Source: Kofleriaceae bacterium
GTDB lineage: Bacteria; Myxococcota_A; Polyangia; Haliangiales; Haliangiaceae
NCBI GenBank assembly: GCA_965215005.1
Contig: CBDCCZ010000054.1
Span: 192,001 to 256,000 of the forward strand
Reading direction: 5' to 3'
DNA length: 64,000 bases
The notes below the pieces were generated by a model. It saw only the letters and a program-made list of their open reading frames with translations, was not told the DNA's origin and made no database searches. The stretch's first letter is position 1. The number at the start of each line of letters is the position of its first letter. The position numbers were made by a program, and so were the translations under genes. This document shows, piece by piece, positions 1,644-61,576 of the stretch.

Positions 1644-1651
1644 GCTCACGC

Positions 1652-1736
1652 TAGTGATTTACGCGTAAGTCGGCAAACCGCTAGCAACGCAACTATTGCT
1701 TGGGGAGACGCCGAAGGGGGCGCGTGAGTAGCAGAA
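1652..1736 (+). repeat. Dispersed structured intergenic repeat, copy 1
   Basis: Aligns with 18815-18899 with about 9 substitutions and 2 indels; identical 22-mer TTGGGGAGACGCCGAAGGGGGC. Confidence 0.9.
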
Positions 1737-1831
1737 ATTAGTTCCTTTCTCCGTGGTTCAAGCCTTGCTCCCTGAGCTTCGTCGACCGTTGCCGGTGATC
1801 ATTCCGCCGTGTGCCTTGATAGAATCTGCGC

Positions 1832-3760: not shown

Positions 3761-3772
3761 TAAATCTGGGTC

Positions 3773-4081: not shown

Positions 4082-4859
4082 TCGCGGCAGCAGGCTGGTT
4101 GCTATCGCGGCGGCCTCGGTGGTGGTGTGTGCGGTTGCGGTGGCGGCGCTTTGGTATCTATATCAGCCACGCGCGGAGCCGGCACAGCCCACCGCCCCCG
4201 CGCCCGTCGCGCCAGTGGACGCGGAGCTTGCCCAGCTGCGAACGCGCTACGGCAACGCGCTGTATTCGCAGTACGACGAGGAGCTGTTTATCCGTGACTT
4301 CTTTGGCGACCGCAGAGGCGGGGTGTTCGTCGATGTGGGCGCGAGTCACTACGAGATCAACAGCACAACGTACTATCTCGAGAAGCACCTGGGGTGGCGC
4401 GGCATCGCGATCGATGCGCTCGAGGACTATAGGCAGGGGTACCAGCGGCACCGGCCGGGCACGAAGTTCTTCGCGTACTACGTCGCCGACCACTCTGGTG
4501 GCATTTCCGATTTTCATATTGTGCGCGGCAATGAGCGGCTTTCGACCGGCCTCAAAGAGGTGGCCAGCGACAAAGGAAGTCATGAGACGGTGGCGCTGCC
4601 AACGGTGAGCTTGACCGACCTCTTGCAGCGCGAAGGCCTCGAGACGATCGACTTCTTGTCCATCGACATCGAGCAGGCCGAGCCAACTGCGTTGCGTGGG
4701 CTCGATATAGAGCGCTTTCGCCCGGCGCTGGTCTGCATCGACGTGAGCCAGCACCGCGACGCGATCTATGCGTACTTTCGCCGCCACGGCTATGAGGAGC
4801 TCGAGCACTACACCCGCCTCGATCCACTCAATGCGTACTTCCGCCCGGCCGCGGAATAG
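4050..4859 (+). CDS. FkbM-family methyltransferase with N-terminal membrane anchor (start uncertain)
   Basis: YSQ..EE, FVDVGA, GWRGIAID, IDFLSIDIE motifs. Confidence 0.8.
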   Translation: MPAGALSIWASRGSRLVAIAAASVVVCAVAVAALWYLYQPRAEPAQPTAPAPVAPVDAELAQLRTRYGNALYSQYDEELFIRDFFGDRRGGVFVDVGASHYEINSTTYYLEKHLGWRGIAIDALEDYRQGYQRHRPGTKFFAYYVADHSGGISDFHIVRGNERLSTGLKEVASDKGSHETVALPTVSLTDLLQREGLETIDFLSIDIEQAEPTALRGLDIERFRPALVCIDVSQHRDAIYAYFRRHGYEELEHYTRLDPLNAYFRPAAE

Positions 4860-5030
4860 CTCGTGCGACGGCGGCTTGGTGACGCGGCAACTCCGTCGAT
4901 TGGCGCTGGGCAATTCGAGGTGCATTTATTGGAGCGCTCATGGTCCGGCGTGTCGGACGCGGGCGTCCGAGTGGCCGGACGCGCGTCCGCTCGAGCGGAC
5001 GCAGGCCGTGCATTGTTGGGAACTTGGGCC

Positions 5031-5046
5031 TGGCGCCGAAGTTGCT
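5031..5046 (+). promoter_or_regulatory. Putative sigma54 (-24/-12) promoter of radC
   Basis: TGGCGCCGAAGTTGCT: GG-N10-GC spacing matches TGGCACG-N4-TTGC; ends 11 nt before the ATG. Confidence 0.6.
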
Positions 5047-5057
5047 AAACCCGTCGC

Positions 5058-5738
5058 ATGGTCGATGCGGCGGAACGTCCTCGAGAACGAATGCTTGCTT
5101 GTGGCGGCGACGCGTTGTCCACCGAGGAGCTCTTGGCGTTGGTGCTCGGCAGCGGCACCCGCGGACGACCGGCAGATGCGGTCGCGCGCGAGCTTCTGGC
5201 TTCGGCGGGGGGAGTGGCGGCGCTTTCGCGGGCAGCGCCGCGCGAGCTTCTCGAGGTGGCCGGCGTGGGGCAGGCACGCGCCGCGCGAGTCGCTGCGGCG
5301 TTCTATCTCGGGCGGCGGGGAATGGCGCAGCTAGGAGCGCAAGACGCGGCGTTGCTCGATGCCGAAGGGGTGTTTCGCCGGCTACAGCCGCGGCTTGGGG
5401 GGCTGGCGCAGGAGGTGTTCGTGGTGCTTGCCCTCGATGCGCGCCATCGCGTCTTGGCCGAGCTCGAGGTCGCGCGCGGCCATTTGACTGGCGTCGACGT
5501 GCATCCACGGGAAGTGTTTCGCCCGCTGATTCGCCAGGCGGCAGCGGCGGCGGTGATCGCGCATAATCACCCATCGGGGGATCCGTCGCCGAGCGCTCAG
5601 GACGTGGCGCTTACCCTTCGGTTGCAGGCCGTCGGCGAGCTCGTCGGCATTCCAATCCTCGATCATGTGATCGTTACCACCAACCGCTTCGTCTCCCTGG
5701 TCGAGCACCTTCCCACCCTGAGCTCCGCAGAGTCATGA
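5058..5738 (+). CDS. radC: RadC / JAB (MPN) domain protein
   Basis: RPRER, HhH segment, HPREVF, HNHPSGDPSPS..D, LDHVI. Confidence 0.95.
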   Translation: MVDAAERPRERMLACGGDALSTEELLALVLGSGTRGRPADAVARELLASAGGVAALSRAAPRELLEVAGVGQARAARVAAAFYLGRRGMAQLGAQDAALLDAEGVFRRLQPRLGGLAQEVFVVLALDARHRVLAELEVARGHLTGVDVHPREVFRPLIRQAAAAAVIAHNHPSGDPSPSAQDVALTLRLQAVGELVGIPILDHVIVTTNRFVSLVEHLPTLSSAES

Positions 5739-5791
5739 TGAATCGACCGCACGCCTTGCTGCCGCTGCGCGCTTCCTGGAGAATCCGCCGC

Positions 5792-6709
5792 ATGAGGTCG
5801 TGCATCGCACCTGTTGCTGTCGTCGCGATTCTGGCCGCTGTGACACCGGCCTTTGCAGACTCGCTAGTCGAGAATCTCGGGCCGCGCGAGATTGCGCTGG
5901 GCGATGCCTCCCGCGCCGAGGCCACCGGCGGCATGGCTGTCAATCTCAACCCCGCGGGCTTGCCGCTGACCCGCGAGGTGGTGTTCGAGGGCTCGTTTGG
6001 CTATCGCTCCGAAGATAGCGCCTCGCTCATCGGCGTTTCCGCTTGCGACTCGACGGTGCCGATCCCGGGGTGCTTTTATTACAAGTACCTCAGCGCCAGC
6101 CCGGAGGTTGCGGGGCTGCAGCTGAGCCGGCGCTTGCACGAAGGTGGCGTGCTGCTCGCGCGCGCCATTGCGCCGCGCGTCGCGATTGGTGTCAACGGCA
6201 AGTACTTTGACTACAACACCGAGCTCGACGGCGAAGCGTCGGCCAGTGGCTTCAGTGTGGATGCGGGGGCCAGCGTCCGCGCGAGCAGCCGCATCGCCCT
6301 CGGTGTGGTTGGCTACAACCTCGCCGGCGAAGACTCTTCGCAGTACCCGCTGGGGCTCGGGGCGGGGCTTAGCGTGCGTCCAGTCCCAAATCTTGGCCTC
6401 GTTTTCGATGGCGTGTGGAACTTCGATCGACCCGAGGAGACTGCGATCGGGCGCTACGGCGGCGGGGCGGAGTATTTCGTGCGCTCGAGCGATAGTCTCA
6501 GCGGCTACCCGCTTCGGGCGGGGCTCGTGCACGATCGCGCGCGCGAGTCCACGTCTCTAACCGGCGGCTTGGGGCTGGTCTCGGCGAAAGTCGCCTTGGA
6601 CGTGAGCGCGCGCTATCAAGTCGGCGGCGAAGGAGATGAGCTCCTCGTCATCGGCAGCTTGCGAATATTCGGACCACGACAGGAAATGAGCTCGCTCGGT
6701 GGTTTGTGA
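5792..6709 (+). CDS. Probable outer-membrane beta-barrel protein
   Basis: Signal peptide, GPREIALG..NPAGL N-terminal motif, alternating beta-strand pattern. Confidence 0.65.
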   Translation: MRSCIAPVAVVAILAAVTPAFADSLVENLGPREIALGDASRAEATGGMAVNLNPAGLPLTREVVFEGSFGYRSEDSASLIGVSACDSTVPIPGCFYYKYLSASPEVAGLQLSRRLHEGGVLLARAIAPRVAIGVNGKYFDYNTELDGEASASGFSVDAGASVRASSRIALGVVGYNLAGEDSSQYPLGLGAGLSVRPVPNLGLVFDGVWNFDRPEETAIGRYGGGAEYFVRSSDSLSGYPLRAGLVHDRARESTSLTGGLGLVSAKVALDVSARYQVGGEGDELLVIGSLRIFGPRQEMSSLGGL

Positions 6710-6773
6710 AAGCTGCCGGCATCGGCCCCGCGGGGCCCGGTGCCTCGTGCGGCTGAGGTAGACTGCTCCGGCC

Positions 6774-7352
6774 ATGTCGCGTCGCGAACGGCTTCTCGTG
6801 CGTCGCCTGCGCGAGCGAAGCGAGAAGGCCTTTCGTGAGCTGATGGAGCTCCACGGCGACCGGGTTTACAACATGACCTACCGCATGCTCGGCAATCACG
6901 AGGAGGCCGAGGATGTCGCTCAGGAAGTGTTCATCACCGTCTTCAAAACCATCGAGAGCTTTCGCGAAGACGCCAAGCTCTCGACGTGGCTGTATCGGGT
7001 CACCGCCAATCACTGTAAGAACCGCATCAAGTATCTGGCGCGTCGCCATGATCGCCGGCAGGCCGAATACGACGATTCACTCGACCGTAGCGTCACGCCC
7101 GGAGCGACCGCGCCATCCCCGTCGCCGCGTCCAGACAAGCAGCTCGAGGGGGTGGAGCTCGAGCGGTTGGTGCAGGAGGCCATCGCCGAGCTCGACGAGG
7201 AGCACCGACTGCTGGTGGTCCTGCGCGACATCGAAGAGCTGGCGTACGAGGAGATTTGCGAGATCACCTCGCTGCCGGAAGGTACTGTGAAATCACGGCT
7301 TCATCGGGCGCGGCTGGCTCTTCGCAAGAAAATGCTCAAACATGTGGAGTGA
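6774..7352 (+). CDS. ECF RNA polymerase sigma-70 factor
   Basis: AEDVAQEVF, STWLYRV, YEEI..GTVKSRLHRAR. Confidence 0.93.
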   Translation: MSRRERLLVRRLRERSEKAFRELMELHGDRVYNMTYRMLGNHEEAEDVAQEVFITVFKTIESFREDAKLSTWLYRVTANHCKNRIKYLARRHDRRQAEYDDSLDRSVTPGATAPSPSPRPDKQLEGVELERLVQEAIAELDEEHRLLVVLRDIEELAYEEICEITSLPEGTVKSRLHRARLALRKKMLKHVE

Positions 7353-7355
7353 GCC

Positions 7356-7721
7356 ATGGCACCGCGACCGCCCAGCATCAAAGACGCTAACAGCCGGCAG
7401 GCCGGTGAGGATGCGGTCTCGGAGCCCGATGCTGGGGAGCTGGCAGGACTGCACCGCATGTCGGCGCCGCAGAGCTTTCGCACGCAAGTGGAACGCACGC
7501 TGCGTGAGCGTTCGGCGGGGCGCTTCTTTGGCCGCAGAGCGTTTGGCGATCGCGTCCCGTTCGGAGTGCTCGCGGTCGTCGCGCTGCTGGTCGGGCTGAT
7601 CATCGTCGCGCTGGTTTGGTCGAGTCACACCGGCAGCCTGCGCTACGAGCGCAATGGCTCTGAGCCCGAGCTGCCGCCCGCGGCCCGCGAGGTGGTGCCT
7701 CGGCCCCAAGGCCTGCGATGA
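7356..7721 (+). CDS. Small single-TM protein, candidate anti-sigma factor
   Basis: 3 nt after the ECF stop; one hydrophobic helix. Confidence 0.55.
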   Translation: MAPRPPSIKDANSRQAGEDAVSEPDAGELAGLHRMSAPQSFRTQVERTLRERSAGRFFGRRAFGDRVPFGVLAVVALLVGLIIVALVWSSHTGSLRYERNGSEPELPPAAREVVPRPQGLR

Positions 7722-7831
7722 CGCTCGCTGGGGTCGCGACGGAGTTCTCGGGCGTCCGCGGGGCGGCGCCAGGGGAGCGGGGCCGGGGCGCTGGCGAGGC
7801 CCGCGCCCCGATTCGTCCCTCAGCAGTGCCG

Positions 7832-8920
7832 CTAGCGGTGCTTGGTCTCGAAGTCTTTCATGAAACCGACCAGTTTCTCGACGCCGGCGCGCGGAAACGC
7901 GTTGTAGATGCTGGCCCGCATGCCGCCGACGCTGCGATGCCCTTTTAGACCAGAGAAGCCGCGCTGCTTGGATTCACGGAGGAACTCAGCCTCGAAGGCT
8001 TCGTCGCGGCCGCGAAAGCAGACGTTCATGTCAGAACGGCTGCCGGCGCGTGCGGTGGCGCGAAACGCGCGGCTTTCGTCCAAATAGTCGTAAAGCAGCG
8101 CTGCCTTGGCGGCGTTGTACTCGCCGAGCGCGGCGAGGCCGCCAAAATCGGCGATCCACTTGAGGACCTCGTCGAGCACGAAGATCGCGAAGGTCGGTGG
8201 CGTGTTGAACATGGAGTCCGCTTCGGCGTGCGTGCGGTACTGCAGCATCGTTGGCAGGTCTCGGCGGCCCTTTTCGACGAGCTCATCGCGGATGATGACC
8301 AGGGTGATTCCAGCTGGGCCGAGATTCTTCTGCGCGCCGGCGTAGATGATGCCGTAGCGCGCGACGTCAATCGGCCGGCTGAAGATGTGGCTCGAGGCAT
8401 CGGTGACGAGCGGGACTCCGCTTGGTATCGCCGGTAATTTCGCGTACTCGGTGCCGAAGATGGTGTTGTTGCCGGTCATGTGCACGTATGCCGGCGCGCT
8501 CGACCAGGTCATCGCCTCGGCCGCTGGAATGTACGCAAAGTTCTCGTCTTCGCTGGAGGCGGCGACGTGCACCGAACCGAATCGTTTGGCTTCTTTGATG
8601 GCCTTTTTCGACCACGACCCGGTGTTGATGTAGTCGGCAGTGTCGCCCTCGCCGAGCAGGTTCATCGGGATCATGAAGAACTGCGTGGAGGCGCCGCCTT
8701 GCAAGAACAGCACGCGATAGCCCTCGGGAATGCCGCCGACGCTGCGGCACCGAGCCTCTGCCGACTCGATGACCTCCGTGAACTCAGGGCTGCGATGGCT
8801 GTGCTCCATCACGCCGATGCCGGAGTCGCCGAGGCTCCAGAGGGCGCGCTGGGCTTTTTCGATCACCGGCTCGGGGAGCACGGCGGGGCCTGCAGAGAAG
8901 TTGTAGATGCGATCGCTCAT
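7832..8920 (-). CDS. serC: Phosphoserine aminotransferase
   Basis: [42 protein letters not shown]; start at MSDRIYNF. Confidence 0.97.
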
Positions 8921-8921
8921 A

Positions 8922-10142
8922 TCAGGCTCCTTGGGTGCCGAGCTGGGTGAGCTCCATGCTGAGAATGTCGGGGCACGAGCGGCGTATCGCCTCGAGCTGT
9001 GCGTCTGACGGGGCCGCGGCCAGCTGAATGCGCGCGCACGCGGCTTCGGCTCCTTCGTAGAGCACGTTATCCATCTCTTCGACGTTGATGCGCGCTTCTC
9101 CGAGCACGCCGAATACTTTCGACAACACGCCGGGCCGGTTCTTGTGGCGCACCGTGAGTAGACAGGTCGCGCTGGCGCGGCTGGCGCGATTGACGCAGTT
9201 GGGGACTTGGCCGCTGGCGGCAAAGACCTCGGCAATGCGGGCAACTTCGAGCGCGATGGCATCTTGCGCTTGCTCAGTGGACGCACCGACGTGGTGGCTG
9301 CCAACCACTCGGTGGTGCTGCGCGAGCTTGCTTTCGAAGGTGCCTTCGGCCGCGCCCGGCTCATTGTCATAGACGTCGAGCCCAGCCCGGAGCTGTTTTT
9401 CGTCGAGGCCGCGCAGCAGCGCCGCTTCATCGATCACCGAGCCCCGCGAGGTATTGATGAGAGTCGCGCCGGGCTTCATCGCCGCGATGAACTCGCTGTC
9501 GACCAGTCGCTGGGTGTCGCGGGTGGCGGCAATGTGAATGGTGACGATGTCAGCGGCAGCCGCCACCTCGCGCATCGACGCGGCGCGGGTGATGCCAAGC
9601 TCGTCGGCATCATCGGCGGTGAGGCTACGCGAATAGGCGATGACGTCCATACCAAATGCCAGCGCGCGGGAAACCACCTCGCGAGCAATCGTTCCCATGC
9701 CGATGACGCCCAGCGTGCGTCCGAAGAGACCCGCCGCTTTGCCATACTCCTTCTTGTTCCAGCGTCCTTGGCGCAGCTCGGCGGCTTGGTCGGGCAAGCG
9801 TCGATCGCAACCGAGGATCAACCCCCACGTGAGCTCAGCCACCGCGATGGCGTTCTTACCTGGGCAGTTGGCGACGAACACGCCCCCGCGCGAGGCTGCG
9901 GCCACGTCGATGGTGTCGTAGCCGGCGCCGGCGCGAATGATGAGCTTGAGCCGCTGCGCAGTCTGGACCGCTTCGGCGGTGACCCGCGTCGAGCGCACGA
10001 CGAGGACGTCGGGCTCGTGTTGGCTCAGTGCTGCTGGCAGCGCATCCGCGCTCAGGCTCGGCTCACTGATGACGTCGTGGCCGGCGCGCTCGAGTGCGTC
10101 GCGGCCGACAGCTTCGAGCTTGTCGGCGATCAGAACCTTCAT
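8922..10142 (-). CDS. serA: D-3-phosphoglycerate dehydrogenase with C-terminal ACT domain
   Basis: [42 protein letters not shown]; adjacent to serC. Confidence 0.88.
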
Positions 10143-10251
10143 GACAACCCCTTCTTCGGCATGCGTTACGAATTGAGTTCGGGGCGCATGCTAGCGTGGG
10201 TGGGAGATTCGATCCACCGCTCGTTCGGCCGAAGATGGTTAGGCGGAAGCT

Positions 10252-10506
10252 CTAATCCTGCTCTTCCCAGTAGAAGACGGTGATAGCGATGCAATGAAAC
10301 GCCTCGTCACTGGACTGCGTGACGACCACGTCGCACACCGTGCATTGCGGGTTGTTTGCGAGCCAGTCGGTGACCTTCTCGCCGAGCCGTTCCCGGTCGG
10401 CGACCATGGTCGCTGAGAAAACTTTGACGCCGTTGAACGTGCGTTGCTGTCCGAACGAGGCCTGTCCCACGGCACTGTTGGAAAACGCGGAGCGAATCTT
10501 GGACAT
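10252..10506 (-). CDS. Small hypothetical protein (84 aa)
   Basis: AGGAGA SD, coding-like composition, 15 nt after the leuA-like stop. Confidence 0.7.
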   Translation of the reverse strand: MSKIRSAFSNSAVGQASFGQQRTFNGVKVFSATMVADRERLGEKVTDWLANNPQCTVCDVVVTQSSDEAFHCIAITVFYWEEQD

Positions 10507-10521
10507 GAGCAGTTCTCCTTA

Positions 10522-11796
<1,275 letters not shown>

Positions 11797-11933
11797 ACAG
11801 TCCTCCGGGAGTCGTAGGTGTAAAAATTCGGCATCAACCTACCCCATTAGGATGGCCGGAAACGAGGCGGTGCGGGAGCCAAGTCGGCACAGCGACAGCA
11901 GATAGCGAATGACCCGCTGCGTCATTCGGCATC

Positions 11934-11957
11934 GCGAGGCGAGAAAATCGCCTCGCT
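11934..11957. terminator. Stem-loop after the ABC ATPase genes
   Basis: GCGAGGCGA-gaaaa-TCGCCTCGC 9-bp hairpin, no U tract. Confidence 0.4.
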
Positions 11958-11988
11958 GAGTCGCCTCAGGCTGCACGCGGACCGCGAA

Positions 11989-13059
11989 TCACTCCGCTAC
12001 GTGGCACGCGGCGTAGCTGCCGTTGCCGAGTTGGCGCAGAACCGGCCGCTCGGTGAAGCATTGCTCGGGCTTGTCCTTCACCTGACAGCGCGGGTGAAAG
12101 GGGCAGCCGGCGGGCGGCTTGAGCGGGCTTGGCACGTCGCCCTGCAGGATCACGCGCGACTTTTTACTGCGCGGGCGGGGCACCGGCACCGCCGACAGCA
12201 GCGCTTGCGTGTAGGGGTGTTTGGGATTGCGATAGAGCGCATCGCTGATAGCGAGCTCGACGACCCGGCCAAGATACATCACCGCAACGCGGTCGCAGAT
12301 GTACTGCACGATCTTGAGGTCGTGCGAGATGAACAGATAGGTGAGGCCTTCTTGCGCCTGGAGATCCTGCAAAAGGTTAACGATTTGCGCTTGAATCGAA
12401 ACGTCCAGCGCGCTGATCGGCTCATCGCAGACGATGAAGCGTGGCTCCACCGCCAGCGCGCGCGCGATGCCCACCCGCTGTCGCTGCCCGCCGGAAAACT
12501 CGTGAGGATAGCGGCTGACGGCATCGGCTCGGAGCCCGGTCCGCTCGAGCAGCGCCACGACCCGCTCGCGTTTTTCCCGCGCGCTGCTGGCAAGACGGTG
12601 AATCTCGATAGGCTCCGCGACGGTCGCGCCAATCGACATACGCGGGTTGAGAGAGGCGTAGGGATCCTGGAAGATCATCTGCATCTCGCGGCGAATGGGC
12701 CGCAGCTGCGCCTGGGACTTGTGGGTGATGTCGTTGCCGTCGAAGACGATGCGACCCGCGGTTGGGTCGAGCAGCCGCAGAATCGTGCGACCGAGGGTCG
12801 ACTTGCCGCAGCCTGACTCGCCTACCAGCCCGAGCGTCTCGCCCTCGAAGACGTCGAAGGTGACGTCTTCAACGGCGCGAACCAGCGCGCTCTTGCGCGT
12901 GAGCGCGCGTCGAACCTTCTCGAGCGCGGAGATATTCTCGCCCTTGGGCCAGGCGATCTTGAGGGGGAAGTACTTGGCGACGGATTCCACGGTAAGCAGC
13001 GCGCGCTGCGGGCGAGGGCGTCCATCGATGACGGCGTCGGCGAGGCTCGAGTTGCTCAT
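11989..13059 (-). CDS. Oligopeptide/dipeptide ABC transporter ATPase (OppF/DppF type)
   Basis: [26 protein letters not shown]-terminal CPFHPRC..CH. Confidence 0.93.
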
Positions 13060-14090
13060 GCGGCGATTCCGGCGGGAAAATGACAGCGCACTTGGTTGTC
13101 GCCCACCGCCGTCAACGCCGGCTCGACCTCGCGGCACTTCGCGGCGACGGCGGGGCAGCGATCGGCAAACTTGCAGCCAACCGGCAGCTCCGAGAGGCTT
13201 GGGACCATTCCCGGGATTTCGTGGAGCCGCTGAGCGCGGCTTTTTTCACGATACGGCGCCTGGTGCGGGCTCTGCTCGCTGCTCTCGGCAACCTCCCCGT
13301 AGCTCGGCACCGATCGGAGAAGCCCAACCGTGTAGTGGTGTCGAGGCGTCTCGAACAGCGCGACCGTCTTGGCGCGCTCGACCACGCGACCGGCGTACAT
13401 CACGACGACCTCGTCACAGGTTTCCGCGACCACGCCCAAGTCGTGGGTGATCAGCATGATCGACATGCCCATGTCGCGCTGCAGGGCGCGAAGAACGTCG
13501 AGGATCTGCGCCTGGATGGTGACGTCGAGCGCGGTGGTTGGCTCGTCGGCGATGAGAAGATCGGGCTCACACGCCAAGGCCATTGCGATCATCACGCGCT
13601 GACGCATTCCACCCGATAGCTGATGCGGATAGCTATGTACCCGCTCTTCGGGCGCAGGAATGCCGACCTTGCGAAACATCTCTATAGCCACCTCGAGGGC
13701 GGCGCGTTTGCGCTTCCCTTGATGAAGACGAACCGCCTCGCTCACCTGATCGCCAACCGTGAACACCGGATTTAGCGACGTCATCGGCTCCTGGAAAATC
13801 ATCGAGATGTCATTGCCGCGGATCTTGCGGATGGCATCGTCGTCGAGCTCGAGTAGGTCGTTGCCCTTATAGAGGATCTGCCCCGCCGCAATTCGGCCCG
13901 GTGGTGAGGGGATGAGCCGCATCACCGAAAGCGCCGTGACCGACTTGCCGCAGCCGGACTCGCCCACCACGCCCAGCGTCTTGCCCGTGGGAATGTCGAA
14001 AGACACCTGATCGATGGCGCGAATGACGCCGCGGTCGGTGCGGAACTCCGTGACCAGATCGCGGATCTCGAGCAAGCTGCCTGCCGCCAT
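13056..14090 (-). CDS. Oligopeptide/dipeptide ABC transporter ATPase (OppD/DppD type)
   Basis: [31 protein letters not shown]. Confidence 0.93.
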
Positions 14091-14124
14091 AGCCGCGGCA
14101 ACATAGCACGGGCTCGGTGGGTCT

Positions 14125-14949
14125 TCAGCGCGCCGCTTGACGCTCGCCGCAGCGGGGCAATCCTTCGGGCGGACTGAGCTCGAACTTCTGCGGCTCGAGC
14201 TGCGGATTGATCGAGCGCTGTTTCCACTCGACCATCAGATCCGCTTTTTGTGGTGGTTGCTTGAACAGCGTCTTGCCAGGAACTCGAAAGGACTGCCCGT
14301 CTTCGCCCGTGATGGTCTTGAAGTCGGTGTTTCGCAAGCTCCACAGCACCTTCCCCGCCGCATCGCGCAGCTCGCTGCGCACGACATCCCAGCGGCCCTC
14401 GCGCGCGTCGAGCTCGATCCGTTGTCGTTGCTGCTGGTCCGCAGAGATCAGCTCGAGAATCTCGTGGCCGGCGTCGGCGTCCCAGCGAACTTCCCCGCGC
14501 GCCCCCACGAGCACCGGAGTGCCGCCCACCGCCATGAGCAACAGCTCGTCTGGGTTCATGCTCACGCGCAGCAGCTGCGCGACCGAGTCACGGCTGCACG
14601 GGCCGGTGAGCTGGCAGTCATTATTGAAGTCGACGAACGCGAAGGACTGCCCATCGCAGGCCAAATCTGCGGCGACGGTGCCGCCGGTGGGGTTGAGCGC
14701 GTTGATACGAGCGCGCGAGCCCACCTCGCCCATCAGCAACACCGTGCCCTTCACGCGGTCGCTGCCGAGCCAGTAGTCCATCGAGCTCTCGGCGCGGTAG
14801 CTGGTAGCGGCAAGTCGCCGTGCTTCGAGGCGCGCGATGATCTCGCTTGCCTCGGGCTCTGGATAGCTGCGCGGAATCGATTTGCTGCCGCAGGCCGCGA
14901 AGAGAGCGAGCCCAGCCAGCGCCGCAATGCGAGTCGATTGCATGAGCAT
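14125..14949 (-). CDS. Lipoprotein, possibly LolA/LolB-like fold
   Basis: LFAAC lipobox, beta-rich body. Confidence 0.6.
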
Positions 14950-14991
14950 TCTTTAGCAGAGATTGGCGCGGGTGCCGGGGCTGCAGCCGGC

Positions 14992-15837
14992 TCAAGCAAT
15001 CATCTTGTACAGCCCAAGGCAGATGTCGAAGAGGATCAAGAACACGATGTACCACTCGACACGCAGCGTCCGCTGCGCTTGCACCAGCTCGAGCAGCGTC
15101 TCAGCGGTGTTGGCGATGAGGCTGAGCTTGCGCTCGAGCGCTAGATGCCGTTCACGCAGCTCGTACTCGTCTTCGAGGCGCATATACAGCCGCTCGAGCT
15201 GCGGCTGCTCCCACAGCATCTCGGGCTTCTCGGTCACCTCGACGCGAGCCACCATCTTGTATTGCACCATGAGCGTGCCGCCGAGCTGCTTGAGCAGGTC
15301 TTTGGCCTCTTGCTTGCCGCGGCCGCTCTCCTGCAGACGCGCGGCGAGAGGCTCGATCTTGTCGAACACCGTCGCAATCTCGCGCTCGTAGTGGGCGAGC
15401 ACCACGCTCTTAGCCAGAATTTCGGCCACCGCTTGCAGCCGCAACAGACTCGGCTCCATGATGGCGATGGCGTGCTCATCGACACCCTCGAGCAGGTGTG
15501 GCTTGACCCACACCTGGGACTTTTCCAGCTCCGGTCGATCGAATGGACGCACGATGCGTTCGCCGAGCGCGGCGACGAACGCCTCTTCTTCGGCATCGGT
15601 GGTGCCGAAGAACACCGCACCGCCATAGCGAAACAGCACCACCCAGCCGCGGGTGCCGGCTTCCACGATGGTCGGTGCAACCGCCAGCCGTCCCTCCAGA
15701 GCGCGGGTATCGATGCGTTCGCCCAAGAAGTAGGCAACCGCGCGAAACGTGTTGTCATCGTGCGCCAAGAGCCGGTGCTCGAACGCTTCGGTGGCGGTGG
15801 TATCGCCGGTGAATGGCCGCATAGAAGACTCCGTCAT
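14992..15837 (-). CDS. RMD1 / DUF155 family protein
   Basis: LFRYGGAVFF, LAKSVVL..YE, PEMLWE..YELRER, EWYIVFLI. Confidence 0.88.
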   Translation of the reverse strand: MTESSMRPFTGDTTATEAFEHRLLAHDDNTFRAVAYFLGERIDTRALEGRLAVAPTIVEAGTRGWVVLFRYGGAVFFGTTDAEEEAFVAALGERIVRPFDRPELEKSQVWVKPHLLEGVDEHAIAIMEPSLLRLQAVAEILAKSVVLAHYEREIATVFDKIEPLAARLQESGRGKQEAKDLLKQLGGTLMVQYKMVARVEVTEKPEMLWEQPQLERLYMRLEDEYELRERHLALERKLSLIANTAETLLELVQAQRTLRVEWYIVFLILFDICLGLYKMIA

Positions 15838-15910
15838 GGGTGACGCCGCTGGTGCCTCGTCACCAGCATGACATCAATTGGCCGCGCAAGAGAGTCGCGC
15901 GCGGCGCCCG

Positions 15911-16420
15911 TTACTCCTGCTTGAGGGACTCGGCGGCGAGCAGTATCTCGCGCAGCAGCGCGCTATGGGGATTGTGAGAAAGCGCCATACGCAGGCTCAA
16001 GATCGCGCTGGCGACCTCGCCGGCACGCAGCGCCGCCTGGGCCCGGCGATAATGTTGCTTGGCGCGCGGGCTGAGCAGCGCGGCTGCTGCTGTAGGGTCG
16101 ACATCCCCTTCGCGCTCGGCGTCGTAGCTGCGCGACTGCTCGACCAAATAGCGATCGCGCTGCAACGGATCGCGCAGCACCAAGTAGGCGTCTGCAATGC
16201 GGCCGTACACGATGCTCAATCGCTCGAGGTCGGCGGGGGCTAGCACCAGGCGGTACATGTCTGGGTGCAGGCGCGCCGCCATCTGATGATAGGCGTGCTG
16301 CAGCTCGACCTCGCTGGCGGTGTGGTCGATGTCGAGCAAGTCGAAGTGGCTCATGCGCGCAAGCCGCGGTTCCACTCGCCGCAGATAGGCGAGCAGCTCC
16401 TCCTTGGTCCATGCGCTCAC
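15911..16420 (-). CDS. J-domain protein with C-terminal TPR-like helix pair
   Basis: HFDLL..AYHQMA.RLHPD..AYLVLRDP..R.RY. Confidence 0.88.
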   Translation of the reverse strand: MSAWTKEELLAYLRRVEPRLARMSHFDLLDIDHTASEVELQHAYHQMAARLHPDMYRLVLAPADLERLSIVYGRIADAYLVLRDPLQRDRYLVEQSRSYDAEREGDVDPTAAAALLSPRAKQHYRRAQAALRAGEVASAILSLRMALSHNPHSALLREILLAAESLKQE

Positions 16421-16429
16421 TCGCTCGCC

Positions 16430-17974
16430 CTAAGCAGCACTGGGCGCGCCGACGACTTGCAGCCGCGCTTCGCACTTGTTGCCGGTTTTGTCGTCGCGGG
16501 CGCGCACGTGCAGGATCCCATCGGTATCGACGCGGAACGTCACCTCGATTTGTGCTGCCCCGCGCGGCCCCAGCGGTAGCTTTTCGAGCACCAGCTGGCC
16601 GAGGAACTCGTTTTCGTCAAAGCGCTTGGACTCGCCGCGACAGCAGTCGATGACCACCCGATCTTGATCGGCGCGGGCGGTGGTAAAGAGCCGCGATCGT
16701 TCGATGGGAATCGGCGCGTTCTTATCGAGGAGCTTCTCGACATAGCCACCGGCGGTGGCGATGCCGAGCGAGGAGGGCGTGACATCGAGGAGGAGTGGTC
16801 GCGCGGGTGCATCACTGGAGCGATGGCCGGCGTCCAGACGCCCGGAGAGACTGGCGGCTTGAATCGCAGCGCCTTGAGCGACGACCTCATCGGGGTTGAT
16901 ATCGATGGAGGGGTAGCGACCAAAGAGCTGCGCCAATCGATCGCGTACCAGTGGAATGCGCGTGGAACCGCCAACGCACAGGACGTCGCTGATCTGCGTC
17001 ACTTCGAGCCGTGCCGCGGTCAGGACCTGGCGGCAGACCTCCATCGTGCGCTCGACGTAGCCTTCGATGAGGTGATTGAAGTAGTCGCGGGTAAGCGAAA
17101 ACGGCAGGTCGACGTGGCGGCCCTCAACCGGCAATCCATCGAGGGTGCCCGAGGCCTCGGCCTCGGTTGATAAGTAGCGCTTGATTTCTTCCGCGGCGAG
17201 CGCGAGCCGGCTCATGCACTGCGGGGACGTGCGGGGATCGATGGCGAGCTGGCGACTCATCTCCGCGGCGAGAAACTCCGCAATGCAGCGGTCGAGGTCA
17301 TCGCCGCCGAGAAAGTAGTCGCCATCGGTCGCCAGCACTTCGAAAAGCTGTTCGCGAACCCGCAAGATGCTCACGTCGAAGGTGCCACCGCCGAAGTCGA
17401 AGACGACCACGGTCTCATCGAGGCGTTGGCCGTAGCCATAGGCGAGCGCGGCGGCGGTGGGCTCGTTGATGAGCCGCAGCACCTCGAGGCCGGCGAGTCG
17501 ACCCGCTTCTTTGGTGGCCTGTCGTTGCGCATCGGAGAAGTTGGCGGGCACGGTGATGACCGCTTCGGCCACGATGTCGCCAAACTGGGTTTCAGCGAGG
17601 CGCTTTAGGTAGGCGAGCACCTGCGCGGAGATCTCGGGCACGGTGAGGCGGCGGTCGCCAGCAACGATGATGGGCTGCTGATTGATCCCTTCCTCGACGC
17701 GATACGGCAGTGAGGACAGCGCCAGCTGCACCAGCGGCGAGCGCAGGTTTTGGCCGATGAGACGCTTGGCGGAGTAGATGGTGCTCGTGGGGTCGGCAAG
17801 CCGGCAGGCGCGGGCGGCATGGCCGGCGATCACGCCAGCTCCCGCGGGAAACGCGACGACCGAGGGATGGATGCGCTCACCGTGCGATCCGAGAGCGAAG
17901 TTCACCCCTTGAGGCGTGGCCACCGCTGCAACCGAGTTGGTCGTCCCAAGGTCGATTCCGATGGCCAACGGCAT
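16430..17974 (-). CDS. Hsp70/DnaK paralog lacking the helical lid (514 aa)
   Basis: IGIDLGTTNS, ITVPANF, INEPTAAA, FDFGGGTFDVS, VGGSTRIP, LLLDVTP; ends shortly after IEVTFRVDTDGIL. Confidence 0.92.
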   Translation of the reverse strand: MPLAIGIDLGTTNSVAAVATPQGVNFALGSHGERIHPSVVAFPAGAGVIAGHAARACRLADPTSTIYSAKRLIGQNLRSPLVQLALSSLPYRVEEGINQQPIIVAGDRRLTVPEISAQVLAYLKRLAETQFGDIVAEAVITVPANFSDAQRQATKEAGRLAGLEVLRLINEPTAAALAYGYGQRLDETVVVFDFGGGTFDVSILRVREQLFEVLATDGDYFLGGDDLDRCIAEFLAAEMSRQLAIDPRTSPQCMSRLALAAEEIKRYLSTEAEASGTLDGLPVEGRHVDLPFSLTRDYFNHLIEGYVERTMEVCRQVLTAARLEVTQISDVLCVGGSTRIPLVRDRLAQLFGRYPSIDINPDEVVAQGAAIQAASLSGRLDAGHRSSDAPARPLLLDVTPSSLGIATAGGYVEKLLDKNAPIPIERSRLFTTARADQDRVVIDCCRGESKRFDENEFLGQLVLEKLPLGPRGAAQIEVTFRVDTDGILHVRARDDKTGNKCEARLQVVGAPSAA

Positions 17975-18141
17975 GAAGCGTCTCGAGTATCGCCCGAGCC
18001 GACGCGGCGGCGCAAAGGCTCCGCGCCCAGCGGCTGCGTTGCCTACCCCAGAGCCGGCGTGCGTCGGAACGGGGAGCGTGCAACTGGGGCCGATAAACAC
18101 TTGCTCCGTGCGCGTTGGCTGCGTATCTTACGCGCCCTCTC

Positions 18142-18214
18142 GCCGGGGTAGCTCAGTCGGTAGAGCGGGGGTCTCATAAGCCCTGTGTCGGCGGTTCAAA
18201 TCCGCCCCTCGGCA
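18142..18214 (+). tRNA. tRNA with CAT anticodon (elongator Met or Ile2)
   Basis: GCCGGGG/CCTCGGC acceptor, AGCTCAGTCGGTAGAGC D-arm, CT-CAT-AA loop, GGTTCAAATCC T-arm; G1-C72, so not initiator. Confidence 0.92.
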
Positions 18215-18274
18215 CCGCGTTTGGTGCAGAACCCAGCGCCGCCAATCGGGCGGCGCTGGATGGCTCCGAGTCTA

Positions 18275-18312
18275 TTGACATCAAATCCGTGACAGGTAAA
18301 CGTGTCTGTCAC
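18275..18312 (+). promoter_or_regulatory. Putative sigma70 promoter of tRNA-Gln with overlapping inverted repeat
   Basis: Perfect TTGACA at 18275, TAAACG about 16 nt later; GTGACAG-N10-CTGTCAC spans the -10 region. Confidence 0.5.
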
Positions 18313-18329
18313 CCCCCGGAAGGGGCCAT

Positions 18330-18402
<73 letters not shown>

Positions 18403-18411
18403 GAAGAATCC

Positions 18412-18810
18412 ATGAAGATACAGAAAAGCAACCGCCTCTTCTTTGGGTGCAAGATCGACAGCAAACTGCGCGAGGCGTTGGCGCAGGCCAAGCCCGGCGA
18501 TAAGCGCTATTTCGAAGATCCCGAAGCACCGTTTCTCCGCATCGTGCTGGTCGAGGAAGAGCGCTGGATCGGCAAAGTCATCGGTGCCGGCATCAACGTC
18601 ACCGAGGTTGAGGACATTCAGCGCAACGTCACGTCAATTCTGCGGCGCATCGCGCCCAACGTGCGTCACTCGCCCACGGCGGTGAAGATTTTCGTCGTGG
18701 ATGAGCTGGCTGGCGACGAGGTCATTGACCCGGTCCCGGTCCCGGTCGTTGACGATGCCGAGGTCCCCGAAGCGGCCGAGTCGACGGGGCCCTACATCGC
18801 GGATTATTAG
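18412..18810 (+). CDS. Hypothetical protein with acidic tail (132 aa)
   Basis: ATG 11 nt after tRNA-Gln; strong coding-like codon usage. Confidence 0.75.
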   Translation: MKIQKSNRLFFGCKIDSKLREALAQAKPGDKRYFEDPEAPFLRIVLVEEERWIGKVIGAGINVTEVEDIQRNVTSILRRIAPNVRHSPTAVKIFVVDELAGDEVIDPVPVPVVDDAEVPEAAESTGPYIADY

Positions 18811-18814
18811 CCAG

Positions 18815-19059
18815 TAGTGGTTTACGGCGTAAGTCGTAAACCGCAAGCAAAGCAACAATCGATTGGGGAGACGCCGAAGGGGGCACGTGAGCAGCAGAAG
18901 TCTGCCGCCCTTGCCCCGCATCGGGGCGGCGGATTTCTGCGTCACGAATCCCGCGGCGGCGTACTAGCTCGTTGAGCCTGCCTCAGGCGGCTCGAAGAGT
19001 ATCTCGGCGTTCTGCTGCGCGTTTCCACACGACGTGCGCTACAGGCGGGACCGCCGCGT
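18815..19059 (+). repeat. Dispersed structured intergenic repeat, copy 2 (longest; core 18815-18960)
   Basis: 12-bp hairpin with GTAA loop, conserved GGGGAGACGCCGAA core, 17-bp hairpin at about 18894-18940; similar to copies 1 and 3. Confidence 0.85.
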
Positions 19060-19989
19060 TCAGTGAGCGCGGGTCGACTGCAGCTCGTAAGCCAGGCCCC
19101 AACGGACGCCCCGGTCGCAGGCGATGACTTCACTGGCGCCCATCTTGTGGACGAGGCGAGCGAAGATGGCGACGCCTCCAGCGATCACATCAGCGCGCTC
19201 CGGTTCCATTCCCGGCATCGCTTTGCGCTCCTCTACCGAGCTGTCGAAGAGCCGCGCTAGTAGTCGTCCGATGGCCGCCGGCTCGATGCGGTGGCCGTGG
19301 ACCGCTGCAGCGTCGTAGCGAGGCAAGCCGAGCTCTAGCGCCGCCATGGTGGTCGCCGTGCCTGCCGTTGCTACCAGTGGCACGCCGAAAGGCAAGCGCA
19401 CGCCCGCGAGCAGCTCGTCGAGCTCGGTCACCAGCGCCGTGGTCTGAAACGGTGCGGGTGGATCGTCGCGCAGATGGCGCTCCGTCATTCGTACCGAGCC
19501 GATCGGCACGCTCTCAACCGAGACCACCTTGCGCCGCTCGCACACGATGAGCTCGGTCGAGCCGCCGCCGACGTCGGCGATCACGGTGGTTGCATCGCCG
19601 AGCTCGGGCAGCGACTCAGTCACCGCCAAGCTCACCAACTCGGCTTCGCGGGCGCCGCTGATGACCTCGACCTTGGTGCCCAGAATTGCTTCGGCGGCGG
19701 CAAGGAAGTCGGAGGCGTTACCGGCTTCGCGCAGCGCCTGCGTGCCCACCACCGCGATGCGCTGCACCTGATGGGAATCGATGGTGGCGCGGAAGTCGCG
19801 CAGGATGGCGAGGCAGCGCTCGATGGCAGCGTGGTCGAGGACGCCGCTGGTATCCAATCCTTTGCCGAGTCGACCGAAGCGCGCCTCGTCATGCAGCGCA
19901 TGCAGCTGCCCTGGCTGCGGCTCTTCGACGATGAGCAGAAGGAGGGTGTTGGTGCCGATGTCGATGGTTGCAAGGCGAGGAAGGCGCAT
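19060..19989 (-). CDS. ppx: Ppx/GppA family exopolyphosphatase (short form)
   Basis: IDIGTNT, GTQALREA.N, SGAREA, DVGGGSTE, RADVIAGG, GVRWG. Confidence 0.93.
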   Translation of the reverse strand: MRLPRLATIDIGTNTLLLLIVEEPQPGQLHALHDEARFGRLGKGLDTSGVLDHAAIERCLAILRDFRATIDSHQVQRIAVVGTQALREAGNASDFLAAAEAILGTKVEVISGAREAELVSLAVTESLPELGDATTVIADVGGGSTELIVCERRKVVSVESVPIGSVRMTERHLRDDPPAPFQTTALVTELDELLAGVRLPFGVPLVATAGTATTMAALELGLPRYDAAAVHGHRIEPAAIGRLLARLFDSSVEERKAMPGMEPERADVIAGGVAIFARLVHKMGASEVIACDRGVRWGLAYELQSTRAH

Positions 19990-20071
19990 GACAGCAACCT
20001 ACGGCGAACGCCAGGCGCTTGCCAGGATTGGGCGCCGTTGGGTGCCTAGCGGCGTGGGCCGCGCCGCTTCG

Positions 20072-21415
20072 TCAACGTCCCGTCAAGCGCGGCATTGGGC
20101 TCCAGTCCACCGACGTGGCCTTGCCGCTCCACACTCGCACCTGTTGCCCTTTGCCGTCGGCGTTGGCGAGATACACGCCGGGTCCCTGCCGACGGCTGGA
20201 CGCAAACGCAATCGCGCGGCCATTGGGCGAAAACGACGGCTCTTCGTTATCGCCTTGGTTTTGAGTGATGCGGACCATCTCGCGGCTGTCGAGGTCGAGC
20301 GTGACGATGTCGAAGTTGCCTTGGTCGCGTGTGGTGAAGGCCAGGATGCGCTTGCCTTTGCGCGGTGACCACGCCGGCGTCGTGTTGTACGGGCCGTTCA
20401 TCGATACTCGGCGCGGCGTGCCTCCGGTGGCTGGCATCACGAAGATCTGCGGTCCGCCTTCGCGATCCGACACGAACGCGATCTCCCGGCCATCCGGCGA
20501 CCACGCCGGCGAGGTATCGATCGCGCGGTCTTTCGTGAGTCGCTGCAGGATTCGGCCACTGCGGGCATCGAGAATGTAGATCTCGGGGTTGCCGTCTTGC
20601 GACAGCGTGACGGCCAGCTTACTGCCGTCGGGCGACCACGAGCCGCCGGTGTTCATGCCGCGGCGATTGCTGATGCGCTTGGGACGACCGCCACCGGCGC
20701 CGACGATGTACATGTCGGGGTTGTTGCGCATGTACGAGGTGAAGACCACTTGCGAGCCGGTTGGTGACCATTGCGGCAGAATGTTGATCGACCGGTTGCG
20801 CGTGAGTCCATAGGGATTGGCGCCGTCAAAATCCATCGCCATAACGGTTTTCACGCCCCGCCCGCCGGTCACGAATGCGATGCGCGAGCCGAAGAAGCCC
20901 GGCTCGCCCGTGAAGTACTCCACCACGTCGTTGGACCACTGGTGGACCATCTGCCGCAGTTGCTGCTTGGGGCCGCGGTAGGTACGCGACAGCACCGGCT
21001 GGCCGCCTTTCTCGATCTCGTACAGGCGAAACTCGGTCTCGACCTGATCGCCGCTCTCGCGCACCCGATACTTCATGACGCCAAACGCGCCGACGTTGCG
21101 CCACTTGTCGATCTCGATATCGAGCCCTTCGCGACTTAGGTCGGCCAAGAACGAGCGGGGGTCGAGCACCTGGAACCAGCCGGCCACCGACATATCGAAG
21201 CGCGCCACCTCGGCAACGAGCTTGGCCGCTGCGGAGTCGGAGTTGACTCCTTGCGGGATCGCGATGGGATAGAGCGTGCGCTTTGGCGAGTTGATGTCGA
21301 TGACGACACCCGACTCTTGCGCCGGCACCGGCGCGGCACTGAAAAGCAACGTCGCCACGGCAACGGCAGCGACGGCAAAATAGCGATTTAGGGGTTGAAA
21401 TTGAAGCATAGCCAT
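20072..21415 (-). CDS. tolB: Tol-Pal periplasmic beta-propeller protein
   Basis: Signal peptide, TolB_N-like segment, repeated PD40 motifs (P.WSPDG). Confidence 0.92.
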
Positions 21416-27279: not shown

Positions 27280-28446
27280 CTAAGGAGCGTGCGTGCGCGG
27301 CCGATCGCTAGCCGGCGGATGCACGCGCCGGGGCGGTGGATTGCCGGCGCTGTCGCGTGGCGCAGGCGGTGGCGCGGCTCGCCGCGGCGTGTTGGAAGGC
27401 GCCGACTGGCCGGACGTGTTGGGCCGCGACGGCGGCGGTGGGGCGGTGCGCCGCGGCGGCGCCTGCGGCGTGTTGGGCCGTGACGGCGGCGGCGCAGCGC
27501 GACCCGGACTCCGCGGCGGAGTGGTGGTGCGCGGCGGCGGTGCGCTCGGCGTGTTGGGCCGTGACGGCGGCGGCGCCGTGCGGCCCGGACTCCGCGGCGG
27601 GGTGGTGGTGCGCGGCGGTGGTGCGCTCGGCGTGTTGGGCCGCGACGGCGGCGGCGCGGTCTGCCCCGGTCCCCGCGGCGGGGTGGTGGTGCGCGGCGGC
27701 GGTGCGCTCGGCGTGTTGGGCCGCGACGGCGGCGGCGCGGTCTGCCCCGGTCCCCGCGGCGGGGTGGTGGTGCGCGGCGGCGGTGCACCCGGCGTGCTGG
27801 GCCGCGACGGCGGCGTTTGCCCCCGCACTGGCGGCTGCGGGCGATACACCGGTTGCCGTGGCGGCGTGTACGTCGGGCGTTGACGCGGGGGCGTATAGGT
27901 TCGCGCCGGCGGCCGCTGCGGGTCATGCGTCGGCGGCTGCCGATAGCGCCCGTAGTTCGATGGAACTCGCTCATTGCCGCGCGGTCGATACCCCGTGGTG
28001 GGGCGTCCGCTACGGTGATCGCGAATGGTCACGCCGCTGGGAACCCGGTTGCGATGCGACCAATAGCCCGAGTGATAGACGTAGGCGCTGCCGTTATAGT
28101 TGTAGTAGGGCTGGATATAGACGTAGTCGGAGCGGTCTTGCACCCAACGGCCGCCAACCCAAACCCACTCATAGCCGTTCCAGTGCCAGTAGCCGTCGAT
28201 CCACACATAGCCGTAGCCGGGCGAGGCCGTGACCTCTTCATAAAGTGGCTCGGGCGGATAACTTTCCACGTTCAGCGTTGTGGGGCTGCCCACGGCGACC
28301 GAACCCGAGGCATAGCCGGAGCTTCTGCCGGTCGTGGAGTACCCGCTCGAGGGGCGACTCTCTCGGACGACGCAGCCAGACGCCGTCAGCGTAAAGCCGA
28401 GGCTGGCAAGTCCGAGAAGCGAGACCAGATGTCGCTTCGTAGTCAT
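27280..28446 (-). CDS. Lipoprotein with YXWGXW repeats and Pro-rich repeat tail
   Basis: ASGC lipobox; YVWIDGYW, WVWVGGRW, YVYHSGYW. Confidence 0.85.
   Translation of the reverse strand: MTTKRHLVSLLGLASLGFTLTASGCVVRESRPSSGYSTTGRSSGYASGSVAVGSPTTLNVESYPPEPLYEEVTASPGYGYVWIDGYWHWNGYEWVWVGGRWVQDRSDYVYIQPYYNYNGSAYVYHSGYWSHRNRVPSGVTIRDHRSGRPTTGYRPRGNERVPSNYGRYRQPPTHDPQRPPARTYTPPRQRPTYTPPRQPVYRPQPPVRGQTPPSRPSTPGAPPPRTTTPPRGPGQTAPPPSRPNTPSAPPPRTTTPPRGPGQTAPPPSRPNTPSAPPPRTTTPPRSPGRTAPPPSRPNTPSAPPPRTTTPPRSPGRAAPPPSRPNTPQAPPRRTAPPPPSRPNTSGQSAPSNTPRRAAPPPAPRDSAGNPPPRRVHPPASDRPRTHAP
27410..27815 (-). repeat. Coding tandem repeat, 81-bp (27-aa) unit, about 4-5 copies
   Basis: APPPSRPNTPSAPPPRTTTPPRGPGQT unit repeated nearly exactly. 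Confidence 0.9.
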
Positions 28447-32024: not shown

Positions 32025-32093
32025 GCGCCAGGCGCAGCGATGGTTGGAGAGTTGCGCCATGGCGGCTATGTTCGGGCCGTGTCGGCGGATGAT
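32025..32093 (+). repeat. Exact 69-bp direct repeat, copy A (contains TTGGAG-N17-TATGTT)
   Basis: Identical to 33636-33704. Confidence 0.95.
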
Positions 32094-32101
32094 ATCGCTC
32101 T

Positions 32102-32182
32102 GCGAGAGTGGCCGAACTGGTAGACGTGCTGGATTTAGGTTCCAGTGTCGAAAGACGTAGGGGTTCGAGTCCCTCTCTCGCA
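32102..32182 (+). tRNA. tRNA-Leu (TAG), imperfect; probable left attachment site
   Basis: GCGAGAG/CTCTCGC acceptor, CTGGA-TT-TAG-GT-TCCAG, long variable arm; D-stem mismatch and T-stem one C short. Confidence 0.85.
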
Positions 32183-32244
32183 CTAGAGTAACACGATCGA
32201 GAAATCGGCGAACCGCGTTCGCGGAACGTTTGCGGAACGATTTG

Positions 32245-33478: not shown

Positions 33479-33587
33479 GGGAGCGCAGCCTAACCGTTGT
33501 TCCGCGGCCGATGAAGGATTCACGCACCTTGCCGCGTCGCGGAACGTCATGGGTTGAGAACCTCGGGAGATTCCTCGTGGGCGCGGA

Positions 33588-33641
33588 ATTTAGGTTCCAG
33601 TGTCGAAAGACGTGGGAGTTCGAGTCTCCCCTCTCGCGCCA
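33588..33641 (+). pseudogene. 3' half of tRNA-Leu (right attachment site)
   Basis: 26 bp identical to 32133-32158, then a different but fully paired T-stem (GGGAG/CTCCC), CTCTCGC-G-CCA. Confidence 0.9.
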
Positions 33642-61533: not shown

Positions 61534-61576
61534 CGTTTCAGGACACCGGAGGTAGCATGTCTGGTAGGCTCACTCC

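Follow-up and report, generated by a model that had tools for sequence, protein, structure and literature searches.

Does the strongly folded DNA that lies between two convergent genes, at positions 18,815 to 19,059 of a 64,000-nucleotide stretch from a Kofleriaceae bacterium (the whole stretch is referred to here as the window), act as a functional RNA, or is it the end of something mobile? The first-pass annotation had described there a 12-bp stem with a GNRA loop, a 17-bp hairpin and an alternative pairing, and had left the choice between a switch, a ribozyme-like RNA and a transposase-recognised end. We examined the repeat in the genome of the window (G000; 92.8% complete) and compared it with three further multi-copy families, identified in G016 (a genome of the same taxonomic family, with 12 matches), G433 (of the same class, with 77 matches) and G648. 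It is likely, with a probability that we put at roughly 0.78, that positions 18817-18964 are one copy of a non-autonomous, gene-less mobile repeat, an IS630-type MITE with in-frame insertions like those of the Rickettsia palindromic elements (RPE). The kind of element is already known, and this family is a further example of it, probably neither a riboswitch nor a ribozyme. The features that we refer to below are as follows.

18817..18964, plus strand: element proper, probably a MITE, 148 bp (the unit is 150 bp counting one TA)
18815..18816, no strand: left flanking TA, putative target duplication, within GTAG here and CTAG in most copies
18965..18966, no strand: right flanking TA, putative target duplication, within CTAG
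18817..18842, plus strand: left imperfect terminal inverted repeat, 26 bp, the part best conserved between genomes
18939..18964, minus strand: right imperfect terminal inverted repeat, 26 bp
18817..18844, plus strand: hairpin 1, 12-bp stem and GTAA loop, overlapping the left terminal repeat
18871..18963, plus strand: long interrupted hairpin, with ACGCCG (18871-18876) paired to the 3′ CGGCGT in the lowest-energy fold and no covariation
18894..18940, plus strand: hairpin 2, 17-bp stem, its core CCGCCCT/GGGGCGG present in G016 and G433 and absent from G648
18814..18963, no strand: 50 codons that, read in the CTA register, lack stops on either strand; no gene in this copy, but translated in copies inside genes
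18968..19059, no strand: unique intergenic DNA outside the element
18412..18810, plus strand: upstream neighbour, 132-aa ORF of no Pfam family, with its stop 4 nt before the TA of the element
19060..19989, minus strand: downstream convergent neighbour, Ppx/GppA phosphatase (PF02541, E 1e-57)
1651..1748, plus strand: truncated copy, 5′ two thirds, 72.6 bits
56048..56141, plus strand: degenerate copy with hairpin 2 deleted, two weak pieces of 14.0 and 9.7 bits
61576..61709, plus strand: degenerate copy (copy 3 of the first-pass annotation), 50.3 bits

Both hairpins are present as described, the first with arms at 18817-18828 and 18833-18844 around GTAA, two of its pairs being G-T, and the second at 18894-18940. 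The differences reported from the copy at 61576-61709 (TCAC/GTGA, GCTC/GAGC and CACCGGTG) were also as given. The repeat does begin 4 nt after a stop codon (which ends at 18810, before 18815) in a convergent gap; however, it does not fill this gap, as was claimed, since the repeat with its flanks spans 18814-18967. The rest of the gap, 18968-19059, gave no comparable repeat match, with only 15-35-nt matches at E ≥ 0.3, and folded about as its shuffles did (z = −0.58), whereas RNA folding of 18812-19060 reached z = −5.85, with none of 200 shuffles as good. Folded as DNA, the element showed z = −5.83 on the plus strand and −3.11 on the minus strand. No promoter or terminator was found at the element, and it had no Pfam or NCBIfam match.

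Other features of the window were recorded in passing. The 132-aa ORF has an acidic C-terminal tail, and just upstream of it lie tRNA-Met (18142-18216) and tRNA-Gln (18330-18402); a listed 231-aa ORF over these two tRNAs is an extension artefact. Two direct repeats, of 89 and 44 nt and with about 90% identity, within 32025-32171 and 33583-33724 are located at tRNA-Leu (32101-32183) and about 1.5 kb past it, suggesting an integration scar. An 81-nt tandem array at 27385-27870 is probably a Pro-rich coding repeat.

The copy had been singled out as the longest of its kind, yet it proved an ordinary member of a genome-wide family. We identified 53 near-full copies in G000 by BLAST (at least 130 of 155 bases, at least 80% identity), and a profile built from them gave 154 matches at E ≤ 0.01 and none in the reversed genome. 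The median identity of the copies to the consensus was 93.5%, and no pair was internally identical. Copies start and stop at CTAG-like 4-mers, tandem copies are joined by one common CTAG-like junction, and 27 of 50 two-ended copies had a period of 150. There are also short derivatives between CTAG sites, about 34 and 52 nt long, that consist of hairpin 1 alone or of hairpin 1 and the linker. The contigs over window 1001-20500 support the copy and the tandem junctions; no empty site was found at the DNA level, and no joint skipping the element occurred among the contigs listed over that interval.

To count the flanking letters we used the 50 copies that could be anchored out of 57 strong two-ended matches, some of which were anchored wrongly. 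The left 4-mer read C in 41, T in 42, A in 45 and G in 48 copies, and the right one C in 44, T in 39, A in 36 and G in 32, so that the inner G (48/50) and inner C (44/50) were steadier than the outer C (41) and outer G (32). In addition, all 9 copies whose left 4-mer does not begin with C have C on the right. With the inner letters steadier and this 9/9 agreement, a 148-bp element with a duplicated TA fits better than a 4-bp duplication. The central dinucleotide was the same on both sides in 25 of the 50 copies (some mis-anchored), and the whole 4-mer was identical in 14.

Gene context was taken from a crude gene finder (4995 genes, 87% coding in G000). Convergent gaps held 18 of 56 intergenic loci compared with 255 of all 2173 gaps (p = 6e-5), co-directional gaps held 16 sense and 15 antisense copies, and the terminal TAG coincided with the stop of a gene in 25 cases among 74 strong matches. 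PMC3049150 describes the same pattern of genomic context for RUP and IS elements.

Of the three options raised for the locus, the transposase-recognised end was supported by terminal inverted repeats, TA/CTAG flanks, a patchy distribution and insertions missing from homologous proteins. The left end of the G000 element matched its reverse-complemented right end at 14 of 26 positions, a value reached by 395-735 of 63,190 background TA-G sites (p about 0.01). The agreement between the two ends was 19/26 in G433 (0-1 of the 63,190 sites), 18/26 in G016 (2-5 sites) and 23/26 in G648, where the element folds end to end. The left-end consensus of G000 was identical to that of G016 (26/26) and agreed with those of G433 and G648 at 22 and 21 of 26 positions. 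The G648 end keeps the CGGCGGAAGTCGTGA motif (21/26 to G000), and its hairpin 1 is reduced to a 4-5 bp stub. Thus, terminal-repeat sequence accounts at least in part for the GNRA loop and the G-T pair, and because the GNRA-containing sequence is retained in the G648 family, where the end has only this stub, it is probably a terminal-repeat motif. A conserved "GNRA hairpin" may therefore be a transposon end instead of a functional RNA, as this case illustrates.

An IS630 element resides in G000 (NF033545, 248 bits), flanked by CTAG and present as three 1.5 kb copies, 99.6-100% alike, together with fragments. IS630 reportedly prefers CTAG targets. The right end of our element matched each end of the resident IS630 at 16 of 26 positions (45 and 24 of 63,190 background sites), whereas its left end matched them at 9 and 11 of 26, the chance level, and on the profile of the element ends the two IS630 ends ranked 1183rd and 2007th of 63,190. 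Two of 7 IS630 left ends share their CTAG with a copy of the element (p = 0.014 against all CTAG sites, but 0.12, not significant, against non-coding ones). A copy lay by a Y1 gene at 1 of 14 loci, and TnpB and reverse transcriptase were not found in G000.

Thirty IS630 loci of this order were examined, of which 20 had a callable terminal pair and the other 10 were dropped; a C-TA flank was present at 38 of the 40 ends and TGA at positions 21-23 in 24 of them (background 1.4%), counts that overstate independence since these ends are interrelated (14 are of one type). In our element, TGA occupies the same positions in 22 of 27 right ends and 16 of 27 left ends. No autonomous element with these ends was found by the end-profile scan of G000, among the 30 IS630 loci or in G648, G699 and G036, nor by motif scans of GTDB contigs and of metagenome, viral and plasmid sequences. 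G016 gave no DDE_3 match and G648 no IS630 above the cut-off, both being fragmented assemblies; in G433 an IS630 fragment and a degenerate copy are separated by about 100 bp and do not abut.

Two arrangements of IS630 in G000 were observed along the way. At C6:55895-58311, tandem IS630 copies with one common CTAG, the first of them frameshifted, extend from the left end of a copy of the element. At C19:53900-56200, an IS630 remnant is located between two ORFs that we take to be replication-initiator-like and ParA-like, in a presumably plasmid-like stretch.

The mobility of the element is indicated by a dispersed 148-bp repeat with 26-bp imperfect ends and CTAG-like TA flanks, single shared tandem junctions and homologous genes without the insert. 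An IS630-family transposase acting in trans would bind both ends and excise the element, which would be inserted at the TA of a CTAG with duplication of the TA and a net gain of 150 bp. Most surviving copies would be those behind stop codons or in convergent gaps. Some genic insertions could add 50 residues in a loop and then persist, because the genic CTAG is mostly a Leu codon (CTA-G) and the element is stop-free there on both strands.

Read in the CTA register, the consensus has no stop on either strand, each of the other four frames has 2-3, and a Leu codon is found at 3666 of 4627 genic CTAG sites. Thirteen of the 154 matches lie inside predicted genes, 12 of them in the CTA register; several of the thirteen are weak matches or fall in questionable ORFs. 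Four of the 49 full copies are in frame inside genes, where both flanks look coding and the frame is open; one other may disrupt its gene. The in-frame hosts are a GNAT, a HAD hydrolase, a Ser/Thr kinase-ATPase and a CheA-like kinase; in addition, a LytS-type kinase carries a copy at its C-terminus, and an unnamed protein contains a partial, antisense one. Neither the 150-bp period nor the in-frame insertions had featured in the first-pass annotation. Overall, 69% of CTAG sites are genic compared with 8% of full copies, which implies that most genic insertions are lost or avoided.

The GNAT with its insert has 190 aa, its homologues mostly 135-150 aa, and all 10 homologues that were aligned (of 174) showed a 50-residue gap, for a net gain of 50 codons. 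Similarly, the HAD hydrolase has about 48 extra residues between its catalytic motifs relative to all 10 homologues that were aligned (of 32), while the homologues of the CheA-like kinase do not cover the insert region. AlphaFold placed the GNAT insert, which has no alignment depth, at low confidence in a turn between two strands, with the rest of the fold confident. A profile of the insert peptide searched over 1.84 billion representatives gave 7 matches, namely 5 proteins of G000 and 2 low-complexity repeats, and the peptides of either strand had no NCBIfam or Pfam match. In G433 and G016, 1 in-frame candidate was detected among 37 hairpin sites examined. The case offers a clean RPE-style protein insertion with a readable target, end structure and likely transposase family, and the small GNAT, with 50 residues inserted at a beta-turn, lends itself to testing whether inserts of this kind are neutral.

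Perhaps the element is frame-neutral by selection, its 150-bp period and stop-free CTA register having been selected so that insertion rarely breaks genes, and its left repeat having been reshaped into a strand-specific hairpin with a second job in RNA or ssDNA. We regard this elaboration as unlikely. Against it, shuffles leave both frames open in 13% of cases, or about 4.5% when the length is counted too, and the full trait occurs in 1 of the 4 families, whose periods are 150, 138, 147-149 and 143. If it were true, it would provide a named transposase family and a target rule for new protein loops of the RPE style.

An explanation that dispenses with IS630 is that of a REP/REPIN-like element, which a RAYT-like HUH enzyme of the Y1 type would move as ssDNA, recognising hairpin 1 and cleaving at CT/CTAG. 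Y1_Tnp genes do occur (5 in G000, 8 in G016, 1 in G433), one in G000 beginning about 430 bp from a copy, and hairpin 1, with its strand-specific G-T pairs and compensatory changes, would suit such an enzyme, as would the short derivatives between CTAG sites that have hairpin 1 with or without the linker. It is rather improbable, nevertheless, as the single locus with a copy within 1.5 kb, among the 14 Y1 loci examined, has it on one side, a different short repeat lies ahead of 2 of the 5 G000 genes, and the Y1 protein tested fell short of the RAYT cut-off, at 33.9 bits versus 80. Moreover, the G648 family has the end motif and near-perfect terminal repeats without hairpin 1, and the GTAG/CGTC tag of REP/RAYT systems, as given in PMC3733652, is absent from the family, the left 4-mer being GTAG in 3 of 50 copies, the window copy among them. 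The five G000 genes (C25, C3, C17, C4 and C46; loci L021-L025) are closely related Y1/RAYT-like genes that form a separate mobile system; two of them have a TCTGGCGCAGG-type short tandem repeat before them, and partial duplicates lie beside two.

The structure itself could also have been kept, or the repeat spread, for an RNA function, as a 3′-UTR stabiliser or processing signal, a switch or a ribozyme. In favour of this, the plus strand folds far above its shuffles, the loop of hairpin 1 matches GNRA in 41 of 53 copies with the adjoining G-T, G-C or A-T pair kept in all 53, and both hairpin cores are common to three lineages, with 98.6% of cells paired. The first-pass annotation had also proposed that compensatory changes maintain the structure. 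In hairpin 1 the varying pair is C-G in 34, T-A in 14 and mixed in 3 of the 53 copies, and over three genomes this hairpin gave 9 both-sided cells, which none of 500 shuffles reached, although relatedness inflates the figure; this part of the proposal stood, with the reservation that the T-A state, which changes 8 times on a tree built from the rest of the element, may have had a single origin. The covariation did not extend to hairpin 2, which was 96% paired: the GCCC/GGGC to GCTC/GAGC change exists, but it comes from one degenerate copy, and over the 53 full copies the 17-bp stem shows 1 both-sided change in 886 cells.

Nor did the alternative pairing or pseudoknot between CGGCGT and ACGCCG (18871-18876) survive comparison. 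The complementarity is real in the window copy, but the T of CGGCGT is unconserved and its pair, the sixth, is possible in 12 of 50 copies; only 2 both-sided cells were found, and across genomes, where the middle of the alignment is unreliable, it was no better than shuffles, 500 of 500 of which reached the same pairing. A search of the window against Rfam returned tRNAs only, the best local E being 1.8. The copies show no orientation bias towards transcription (16 sense versus 15 antisense) and are found in both orientations in coding sequences, and the loop sequence occurs in the right terminal repeat too and in G648, where hairpin 1 does not form. Together with the sparse distribution described below, this makes an RNA function very improbable as the reason for the repeat, and neither the switch nor the ribozyme was supported. 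Quasi-palindrome repair or an effect at mRNA 3′ ends could account for the left-repeat hairpin in three lineages and for the common core of hairpin 2, and the MITE reading leaves room for a secondary effect on mRNA stability.

Site-specific insertion by some other enzyme with a CTAG or CT core, whether an IS110-type recombinase or an IS5/IS701-type transposase that duplicates 4 bp, is very improbable: a single CTAG at each tandem junction and at each target would equally fit a core-sharing recombinase, G433 has one IS110 gene, and three copies carry an identical non-standard 4-mer on both sides (CTCG, CGAG and CCAG), but G000 and G016 have no IS110 domain, the 92.8% complete G000 has no DDE_Tnp_1, left and right 4-mers agree in those 14 of 50 copies only, and the end layout is that of IS630. 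Retron/msDNA-like, bridge-RNA and omega-RNA ideas were dropped because reverse transcriptase was absent from G000 (at the same completeness), IS110 from G000 and G016, and the TnpB zinc-ribbon from all 4 genomes.

We therefore return to the IS630-type MITE, whose distribution is patchy. Of 138 genomes of the family, 2 carry it in multiple copies and 14 have any match, the 12 singletons among them lacking a TA anchor; in all, 13 single matches in relatives without a TA anchor were counted as chance. Around G433, 1 of 61 genomes has it in multiple copies; across the class, 4 of 301 genomes had any match, and the exact motif was found in 1 of 401 genomes across the phylum. Two genomes flagged as unpublished, G462 and G463, enter these tallies and the set of CheA-like homologues. 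Such rarity in the family and class argues against a conserved RNA. The motif scan of GTDB contigs gave 12 stretches, 7 of them real, with related elements in contigs of "Nannocystineae bacterium" and "Deltaproteobacteria bacterium". The metagenome scan gave 2 stretches and the viral scans 1 and 2, of which one is possibly real and is ended by the edge of its contig; plasmid sequences had no match to the motif. No published description of this element family, which occurs in myxobacteria-like genomes, was found in the literature on IS630-type MITEs and myxobacteria, although the tables of a large MITE survey (PMC11602168) may list it.

The anatomy is that of RUP from Streptococcus pneumoniae, Correia/NEMIS and ERIC, which are described in PMC2229807 and PMC3049150 as gene-less elements of 100-200 bp with terminal repeats, TA at both ends and strong folding; in these sources the RUP-type MITEs likewise show a surplus between convergent genes and a link to IS630 through similarity of the ends. 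RUP was tied to IS630-Spn1 by the same sort of evidence (PMC2229807). Unlike RUP-type MITEs, our element is GC-rich, its own terminal repeats are very degenerate (14/26) and the left repeat is itself a hairpin. Only one of its two ends matches the resident IS630, and the likeness to RUP is one of anatomy, no relation in sequence being expected. For ISY100 of the IS630 family, PMC2170065 reports 24-bp imperfect repeats and duplication of TA; our element shares the TA flanks in a CTAG context, the imperfect terminal repeats of about 24-26 bp and the TGA at 21-23, but it has no transposase gene and no internal similarity to the resident IS630.

The Rickettsia palindromic elements, as covered in PMC10969869 and PMC2229807, are also palindromic, about 150 bp long and inserted in frame in unrelated protein genes, where they give one peptide. 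The peptides of our element, with no family match on either strand, are non-homologous to them, and it is RPE-like in its working; in contrast to RPE, genic copies make up only 4 of the 49 full ones, the host is presumably a free-living myxobacterium, and the target and end type can be read, the target duplication of RPE being entered as "?" in Table 1 of PMC2229807. The GTAG-/CGTC-tagged REPs of RAYT systems resemble it as dispersed GC-rich hairpins, some of them intragenic (PMC3733652), whereas our element is longer, bounded by terminal repeats and TA, tagless and not flanking Y1 genes.

Three observations on the sister families may be added. In G648, two long downstream ORFs, of 451 and 315 aa, take their ATG and first residues from the left end of the sister element (L207 and L210, position 1525, minus strand), and at L248:1500, on the minus strand, a 37-nt mini-element consists of two terminal-repeat halves between two CTAG. 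In G433, a shortened copy (L084:230) abuts the start of a Ppx/GppA-like gene, the same family as the 3′ neighbour of the window copy, which is probably a coincidence.
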